Origin: a virus
Lineage: Duplodnaviria; Heunggongvirae; Uroviricota; Caudoviricetes
Length of the DNA stretch: 4,263 bases
Strand: one strand, 5' to 3'
Virus record (IMG/VR): IMGVR_UViG_2563366903_000003
Location: 1-4,263 of that record
Shown: positions 1 to 552 of the stretch, in pieces
Layout of the letters: every line of letters starts with the position of its first letter
Numbering within the stretch: position 1 is the first letter of the stretch
Notes under the pieces: model-generated
What the model saw: only the letters and a program-made list of their open reading frames with translations
What the model was told of the DNA's origin: nothing
Database searches by the model: none
Translations under genes and position numbers: made by a program

Positions 1-552
1 CGCGGAACAGGAATATGGCTTACCGCCTCCTTCACCATCTGCTCAAGCATCGGACGCACATCATCGGGAGTGATACTTTTACCGTTCGCCGGTACCGGAA
101 TATTCGCAACCGCATCATTCACCGCCTTCTGCAATACTTCCGGATCGTAGTCACGACCATCACGCGGAACAGGAATATGGCTTACCGCCTCCTTCACCAT
201 CTGTTCAAGCATCGGACGCACATCATCCGGGGTGAGACTTTTACCGTCCGCCGGCTGCGGAATATTTGCGACCGCATCATTCACCGCCTTCTGCAGAACA
301 TCGGGATCATAGTCACGACCGTCGCGCGGAACAGGGATATGGCTTACCGCCTCCTTCACCATCTGTTCAAGCATCGGACGCACATCATCCGGGGTGAGAC
401 TTTTACCGTCCGCTGGCTGCGGAATATTTGCGACCGCATCATTCACCGCCTTCTGCAGAACATCCGGATCGTAGTCACGACCATCACGCGGAACAGGAAT
501 ATGGCTTACAGCCTCCTTCACCATCTGCTCAAGCATCGGACGCACATCATCG
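1..552. repeat. 162-bp direct tandem repeat, about 3.4 copies (1..162, 163..324, 325..486, 487..552); array probably continues beyond window start
   Basis: Unit beginning cgcggaacagg recurs at 1, 163, 325 and 487. Period is exactly 162 bp (54 codons). Copies are about 90-96% identical. No unique spacers separate the units. Confidence 0.95.

Follow-up and report, generated by a model that had tools for sequence, protein, structure and literature searches.

Synonymous differences between copies of a portal-adjacent tandem repeat in an E. coli lambdoid prophage

The closest described proteins at the locus studied here are portals of the HK97 family (PF04860, TIGR01537), including the ~860-aa 'portal protein' of phage 2851 represented by profile phrog_2271. 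The repeat gene that is our subject overlaps a portal gene of this family, and in one E. coli clade the two are one ORF; the repeat protein itself differs from HK97-family portals in having no portal domain. Arrays of in-frame modules that vary in number between related phages, are homogenised and stand under purifying selection are known from the BACON repeats of crAssphage (PMC6949934) and from collagen-like repeats, and the array described below is of the same kind. We searched the literature for the portal-adjacent protein, for its repeats and for its frameshift, and no paper dealt with them specifically.

The window, by which we mean the whole stretch of 4,263 nucleotides that was analysed, belongs to a lambdoid prophage of E. 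coli, of the Pankowvirus/Marienburgvirus type, and carries its head-gene module on the minus strand (Table 1). Its protease-capsid ORF stands upstream of the portal gene, an order that differs from that of HK97 (portal, protease, capsid), and the small phrog_829 ORF overlaps the portal start by 55 nt and is conserved in all close relatives inspected. The portal domain lies entirely within the upstream ORF, which directly precedes the repeat ORF. The repeat gene sits between the portal and head-tail adaptor genes, and Variovorax and an environmental contig preserve the order of portal, repeat gene, adaptor and head-closure protein. A distant environmental relative (L164, 6563-7669) has a 368-aa protein with PKD (Ig-like) domains inserted between the portal gene and the repeat-protein homologue, which suggests that the position after the portal collects surface-exposed accessory proteins.

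At least 80% of the window is present in 1,250 of 20,395 complete E. coli records, at a median of 6 places per genome having any. The named relatives are the Stx-converting siphophages BP-4795, 2851, 1717, YYZ-2008 and phi330; phi330 forms plaques, and the receptor of this siphovirus is OmpC (PMC12502783). In the prophage of E. coli 2018-166 (L001, 554-1717) a gene annotated as porin OmpC interrupts the tail genes, with that for minor tail protein L on one side and one for a tail protein on the other; a link between this gene and the use of OmpC as receptor by phi330, for example through superinfection exclusion, is speculation.

Table 1. Features of the window and the sites at which the two compared repeat copies differ.
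Feature	Position	Strand	Content or basis
Prohead protease-major capsid fusion, 645 aa	4226..2289	-	Peptidase_S78 (residues 48-153) and Phage_capsid (residues 386-635)
73-aa ORF, phrog_829	2023..2244	-	between capsid and portal genes
HK97-family portal gene, 454 aa	713..2077	-	Pfam Phage_portal PF04860, E 7e-81; TIGR01537 portal_HK97, E 2e-106
C5 on the plus strand, equal to G5 on the coding strand (AGGGGGAT)	728..732	-	11 nt upstream of ATG; resembles a ribosome-binding site
ATGA overlap of portal stop (TGA 715..713) and repeat ORF start (ATG 716..714)	713..716	-	sequence
Unique N-terminal 55 codons of the repeat ORF (MTERELSIIRALGEEF...)	552..716	-	start ATG 716..714
Tandem array	1..551	-	unit of 162 nt (54 codons); continues past the window's left end
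Full units, in coding order	551..390, 389..228, 227..66	-	Tandem Repeats Finder and translation
Terminal degenerate unit, first 65 nt only	65..1	-	Tandem Repeats Finder and translation
Copies compared in the earlier note	163..486 (163-324, 325-486)	-	identical 54-aa translations
Difference site, copy 163-324/325-486, A/G	174/336		minus-frame codons ATT/ATC, Ile
Difference site, copy 163-324/325-486, C/T	252/414		minus-frame codons CCG/CCA, Pro
Difference site, copy 163-324/325-486, G/C	303/465		minus-frame codons CCC/CCG, Pro
Difference site, copy 163-324/325-486, A/G	309/471		minus-frame codons TAT/TAC, Tyr
Difference site, copy 163-324/325-486, G/A	321/483		minus-frame codons GAC/GAT, Asp
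Difference site, copy 163-324/325-486, G/A	324/486		minus-frame codons CGC/CGT, Arg
Antisense 'shadow' ORF, 185 aa	15..572	+	no PHROG match, no Pfam match above threshold

Coding strand and evolution of the repeat units

Tandem Repeats Finder describes the array as 3.4 copies of a 162-nt period with 93% matches, 0 indels and a score of 955, and the unit translation, DDVRPMLEQMVKEAVSHIPVPRDGRDYDP[DE]VLQKAVNDAVANIP[QV]PA[DN]GKS[LI]TP, occurs three times. An earlier note, made from the sequence of the window, had compared two copies and reported six differences at about 96% identity, all of them silent third-position changes on the minus strand and first-position changes in the plus-strand ORF. 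Direct comparison gives exactly these six differences (156/162 identical positions, 96.3%). In the minus frame, read from the ATG of the repeat ORF, all six are third-position and synonymous; in the plus-strand ORF all six are first-position and alter the residue (N/D, R/W, G/R, I/V, V/I and A/T). Codon-aligned Nei-Gojobori counting in the minus frame yields 6 synonymous and 0 non-synonymous differences for S=37.0 and N=125.0; the probability that six of six are synonymous by chance is 1.4e-4, and that six of six fall on third positions, 1.4e-3. Two caveats weaken this window-only statistic and leave the conclusion unaffected. Sites 303, 309, 321 and 324 co-occur as one haplotype (GAGG is present in 30 other units), so that the copies differ by about three events and the window-only probability rises to about 0.01-0.04. 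The other caveat is a plus-strand frame that shares its third positions with the minus frame (codons from 163): it also counts 6 synonymous and 0 non-synonymous differences, its pN/pS is 0.30, and it is ruled out solely by 3 stops within the array.

A broader comparison is provided by 300 units collected from the window, two E. coli chromosomes and 78 IMG/VR loci, 120 of which are distinct in nucleotides; pN/pS was computed on 93 distinct core units from 80 related prophage loci, with the terminal degenerate units set aside. Over these 93 units pN/pS is 0.25 in the minus frame, which bears out the purifying selection on the minus-strand protein proposed in the earlier note, against 1.37 in the frame of the plus-strand ORF and 1.6-2.3 in the three further frames; variable columns number 43, 28 and 20 at minus-frame codon positions 3, 1 and 2, respectively. 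That note had also named the pattern that would speak against it, namely copies with substitutions non-synonymous in the minus frame and conservative in the plus frame, and when all units were compared in this way the result went against the plus frame. No stop interrupts the minus frame across the array, whereas the other two minus frames contain 11 and 20. Substitution pattern, homology and open frame thus agree independently on minus as the coding strand. The ORF at 15..572 of the plus strand was rejected as a gene: profile searches assigned it to no PHROG family and found nothing at the Pfam threshold, its pN/pS is the 1.37 given above, and the six differences are all non-synonymous in it. 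The repeat unit is free of stops in the frame of this ORF, which is why it stays open throughout the array, and an ORF finder could readily miscall it as a gene.

The same collection shows where the six differences come from. All six sites are polymorphic among 222 units from other loci (the 80 related loci), and each of the window's three copies has a six-site haplotype that recurs elsewhere: ACCGAA in 28, ACGAGG in 24 and GTCGAA in 6 other units. The differences are pre-existing synonymous variants reshuffled among units and prophages, not new mutations that followed a local duplication. Comparison of repeat counts across relatives, as the earlier note had recommended, revealed arrays that differ by whole 162-nt units, with proteins of 353, 407, 461, 515 and 569 aa; ORF length steps by exactly 54 residues, which, with the terminal unit counted, means arrays of 3 to 7 units. 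As 162 nt is 3 × 54, gain or loss of a whole unit preserves the reading frame. The suggestion of recent duplication or gene conversion is upheld by this whole-unit length variation and by internal units that are 95-100% identical within an array, one array having four identical units. The first unit usually departs more, at ~85% identity to the internal units; in the window it has been homogenised too (95%), as it has in L002, L043 and BP-4795. Near-identical units and shared haplotypes are what unequal crossing-over and gene conversion usually leave behind. It is proposed that unequal recombination or gene conversion would expand, contract and homogenise the array, both within one array and between related prophages in one genome, that the presence of several paralogous prophages per cell probably helps the exchange of units, and that selection on the protein would purge most amino-acid changes.

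A separate gene, a broken portal or an assembly artefact

The minus-strand ORF matches phrog_8767 (E 4e-154) and also positions 455-692, in the C-terminal half, of the 859-position 'portal' profile phrog_2271. It has 1,473 close protein relatives, and a search with the homologue P0004 retrieved 5,782 representatives of 50%-identity clusters at E <= 1e-3. Most members of this family are stand-alone proteins of 250-700 aa with a variable number of ~27-residue half-modules of the form [helix]-I-P-x-P-x-D-G, and some carry collagen-like G-X-Y inserts between the modules. Neither PF04860 nor TIGR01537 matches the repeat ORF, whether as window 2-716 on the minus strand or as the full-length L001 protein. 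Homologues from Klebsiella, Pantoea, Enterobacter and Variovorax (P0292-P0311, P0273 and L162 8001-9404) are named 'phage portal protein' or 'phage gp6-like head-tail connector protein'; these stand-alone proteins have no portal or connector domain, and their names look like a transfer from the fused E. coli proteins. Several Pfam candidates for the repeat region were set aside (DUF4244, TetR_C_35, FliG_N, and the precomputed, 'faint' PF28083, that is QatB), being below threshold or without a significant stretch, and are treated as compositional matches arising from the amphipathic helices. Sequence and profile searches of the PDB found no real homologue; they returned just designed helical-repeat proteins, which are compositional, and weak CBM-like matches.

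At the junction the coding strand of the window reads TTC AGG GGG ATA CTG CGA AAA TGA. With five G residues (G5) the portal ends at the TGA that overlaps the next ATG, and with six (G6) the portal and the repeat ORF are fused into one protein of ~860 aa, the fused proteins reading ...AMFRGDT[AE]KMTERE.... A stop/start overlap of the ATGA type is a standard layout for translational coupling of two genes. The fused form is found in the inducible phages 2851 (859 aa) and 783R2, and the split form in BP-4795, an infective isolate with a finished genome. The junction is readable in 78 IMG/VR loci, of which 49 are G5 and 29 are G6.

We consider it probable that the repeats belong, as in-frame coding modules, to a separate minus-strand gene and not to a broken portal gene. 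The principal rival is the view expressed by NCBI PGAP, which labels a 2.6-kb stretch of L001 and of L002 'phage portal protein, frameshifted', because some E. coli phages have the fused ~860-aa ORF: the repeats would then be a C-terminal extension of the portal, and the window would carry a frameshifted portal pseudogene. The coverage of both parts by phrog_2271, the fused ORFs of 2851 and 783R2 and many fused partial proteins in the database are consistent with that view, and yet all distant relatives are split. Those of 47-59% identity keep the two-gene layout with its 4-nt ATGA overlap and have no G-run (e.g. cagaggattgcttaccaaATGA), showing instead a GAGG/GGGG motif, a putative ribosome-binding site, ~11 nt upstream of the ATG; in Variovorax the overlap is 11 nt. 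Among the IMG/VR loci G5 occurs in every sequence cluster, whereas G6 is found mostly in one (21 G6 and 2 G5, at 97% identity). All G5 loci (49/49) have an intact downstream ORF, while 5/29 G6 loci have a truncated one (Fisher p = 0.006, although the five perhaps partly share ancestry), and the pN/pS of 0.25 indicates that the repeats are still selected. A portal extension broken in the window is, in light of these comparisons, unlikely, and from the sequences we conclude that the two-gene layout is probably ancestral and functional and is the one the window carries, with the G6 fusion as a derived variant. Very unlikely, in our estimate, is a reading in which the G-run serves programmed slippage or phase variation, where a slip of the ribosome or polymerase, or a heritable G5/G6 switch, would make both plain and module-bearing portal subunits. 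A -1 slip on AGG GGG would give exactly the junction of the fused proteins (...FRG-DTAK-MTERE), and a few loci with 100% identical flanks do differ in G5/G6 (L019 against L009, L011 and L012; L059 against L015-L017). Against this, the sequence TTC AGG GGG ATA contains no canonical X XXY YYZ heptamer, the G-run is missing from the relatives of 47-59% identity that have the two-gene layout, and in 68 of 72 loci the nearest neighbour has the same G state, so that switching is rare or partly sequencing error.

The repeats might also be partly an artefact of assembly, a short-read assembler having joined units from co-resident prophage copies, in which case their order, number and differences would not belong to one real array. 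The window does end within the array, at a unit boundary, and module-bearing genomes hold a median of 6 copies; where short-read scaffolds encode the very portal protein of the window, their arrays are interrupted by gaps of 100 N (L166, L169) or shortened (L167 6704-7603, 299 aa; L170 6036-6773, 245 aa), and most database relatives are partial proteins on contigs of 1.6-5 kb. We nevertheless regard this as the least likely of the readings weighed here, since an independent 18-kb metagenome scaffold (L165) agrees with the window's 716 nt at every position but site 414, the window's units match those of other assemblies at 98-100%, similar arrays occur in complete genomes and finished phage genomes, and the inference of the coding strand would survive even a chimeric array. 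The full product encoded by that scaffold is 407 aa, made up of 55 unique N-terminal residues, 3 full units, a degenerate terminal unit and a C-terminal domain of ~135 residues. What the shorter assemblies do indicate is that the array is a point at which short-read assemblers break or collapse, which probably explains both the end of the window and the partial relatives; unit numbers from draft assemblies are therefore not to be trusted.

In the deposited genome of vB_EcoS_phi330, which was manually Sanger-sequenced, the locus (L085, about 838-2216) is G6 with extra frameshifts around the terminal unit, and the gene is in pieces. Either the gene is dispensable for plaque formation by phi330, or the repeat contains sequencing errors.

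Predicted architecture and comparison with known systems

The product of a separate repeat gene consists of an N-terminal helix of ~50 residues, n modules of 54 residues and a C-terminal beta domain of ~135 residues, a module being built of two amphipathic helices with a Pro-x-Pro-x-Asp-Gly loop after each. An AlphaFold2 model of P0004, computed as a monomer from an alignment of 23 diverse relatives, has one long N-terminal helix (residues 3-50, pLDDT 83-89), a repeat region in which 12-residue loops set apart six helices of 13-17 residues and which is predicted at low confidence (pLDDT ~50), and a C-terminal beta domain with pLDDT >90. In this model the C-terminal domain resembles the chitin-binding CBM5/12 fold. 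Pfam CBM_5_12 is matched by 18/24 diverse members at E <= 0.01 (best 1e-7) and PF02839 is precomputed on some Klebsiella homologues, and the E. coli proteins score 21.0-21.4 bits against CBM_5_12, under the Pfam gathering score of 26.2. Foldseek places it closest, among viral proteins, to collagen-repeat proteins, CBM5/12 proteins and tail fibres.

From this architecture, the position of the gene and a comparison with T4 fibritin and other segmented fibres, it is tentatively proposed that the protein could be an elongated and probably oligomeric portal/neck fibre, in which the number of repeats would set the length of the stalk and the tip would bind glycan. The collagen G-X-Y inserts of some members and the location of the gene among neck genes are at most indirect hints of a trimeric, fibritin-like or collagen-like fibre. 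Portal structures place the C-terminus of the portal inside the capsid. The G6 fusion would therefore put the module there, which fits an external fibre badly unless the fusion is cleaved or is a tolerated defect; either it is such a defect, which fits the finding of truncations only in G6 loci, or the protein acts at the inner face of the portal. It is doubtful that the G5/G6 tract is a heritable or translational switch by which a length-variable module with a glycan-binding-like tip would be free in the virion in one state and covalently linked to the portal, on all twelve subunits or on some, in the other. If it were, the phages would possess a 'portal-tethered' accessory module with a stalk length tuned by gain and loss of 162-nt units, and annotations of a 'frameshifted portal pseudogene' would conceal a functional two-state locus.

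The array is real but ordinary, an in-frame tandem repeat in a gene of a phage structural module that is already in the databases under misleading names, and reading the coding strand from the repeat copies, correct and neat as it is, matters very little in itself. The practical consequences concern annotation. In the annotated relatives examined, a conserved and selected portal-adjacent gene goes under the mistaken labels 'frameshifted portal protein', 'portal protein' or 'gp6-like connector', and breakage of the array in short-read assemblies probably accounts for many partial 'portal' proteins. The gene belongs to a large uncharacterised family (the 5,782 clusters at 50% identity), and its product is a candidate accessory adhesin of Shiga-toxin-converting and related siphophages. 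The only parts with some potential are the G5/G6 junction and this portal-adjacent family, with its variable stalk and CBM-like tip.

Among known proteins the closest in layout is T4 fibritin (wac, the neck whisker), which from established knowledge likewise has an N-terminal attachment helix, short helical segments with loops and a small C-terminal beta domain, and whose gene, like the repeat gene, lies among head-completion and neck genes. The two share no sequence similarity; fibritin has neither a tandem array of near-identical units nor a CBM-like tip. Compared with the CBM5/12 (chitin-binding type 3) domains of chitinases and of phage fibre and collagen-like proteins, the C-terminal domain of ~135 aa exceeds a single CBM of ~45 aa. 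The module of the array is a 54-residue two-helix unit, unlike the BACON and other Ig-like domains or the G-X-Y triplets of the phage repeat arrays with which it shares its mode of variation.
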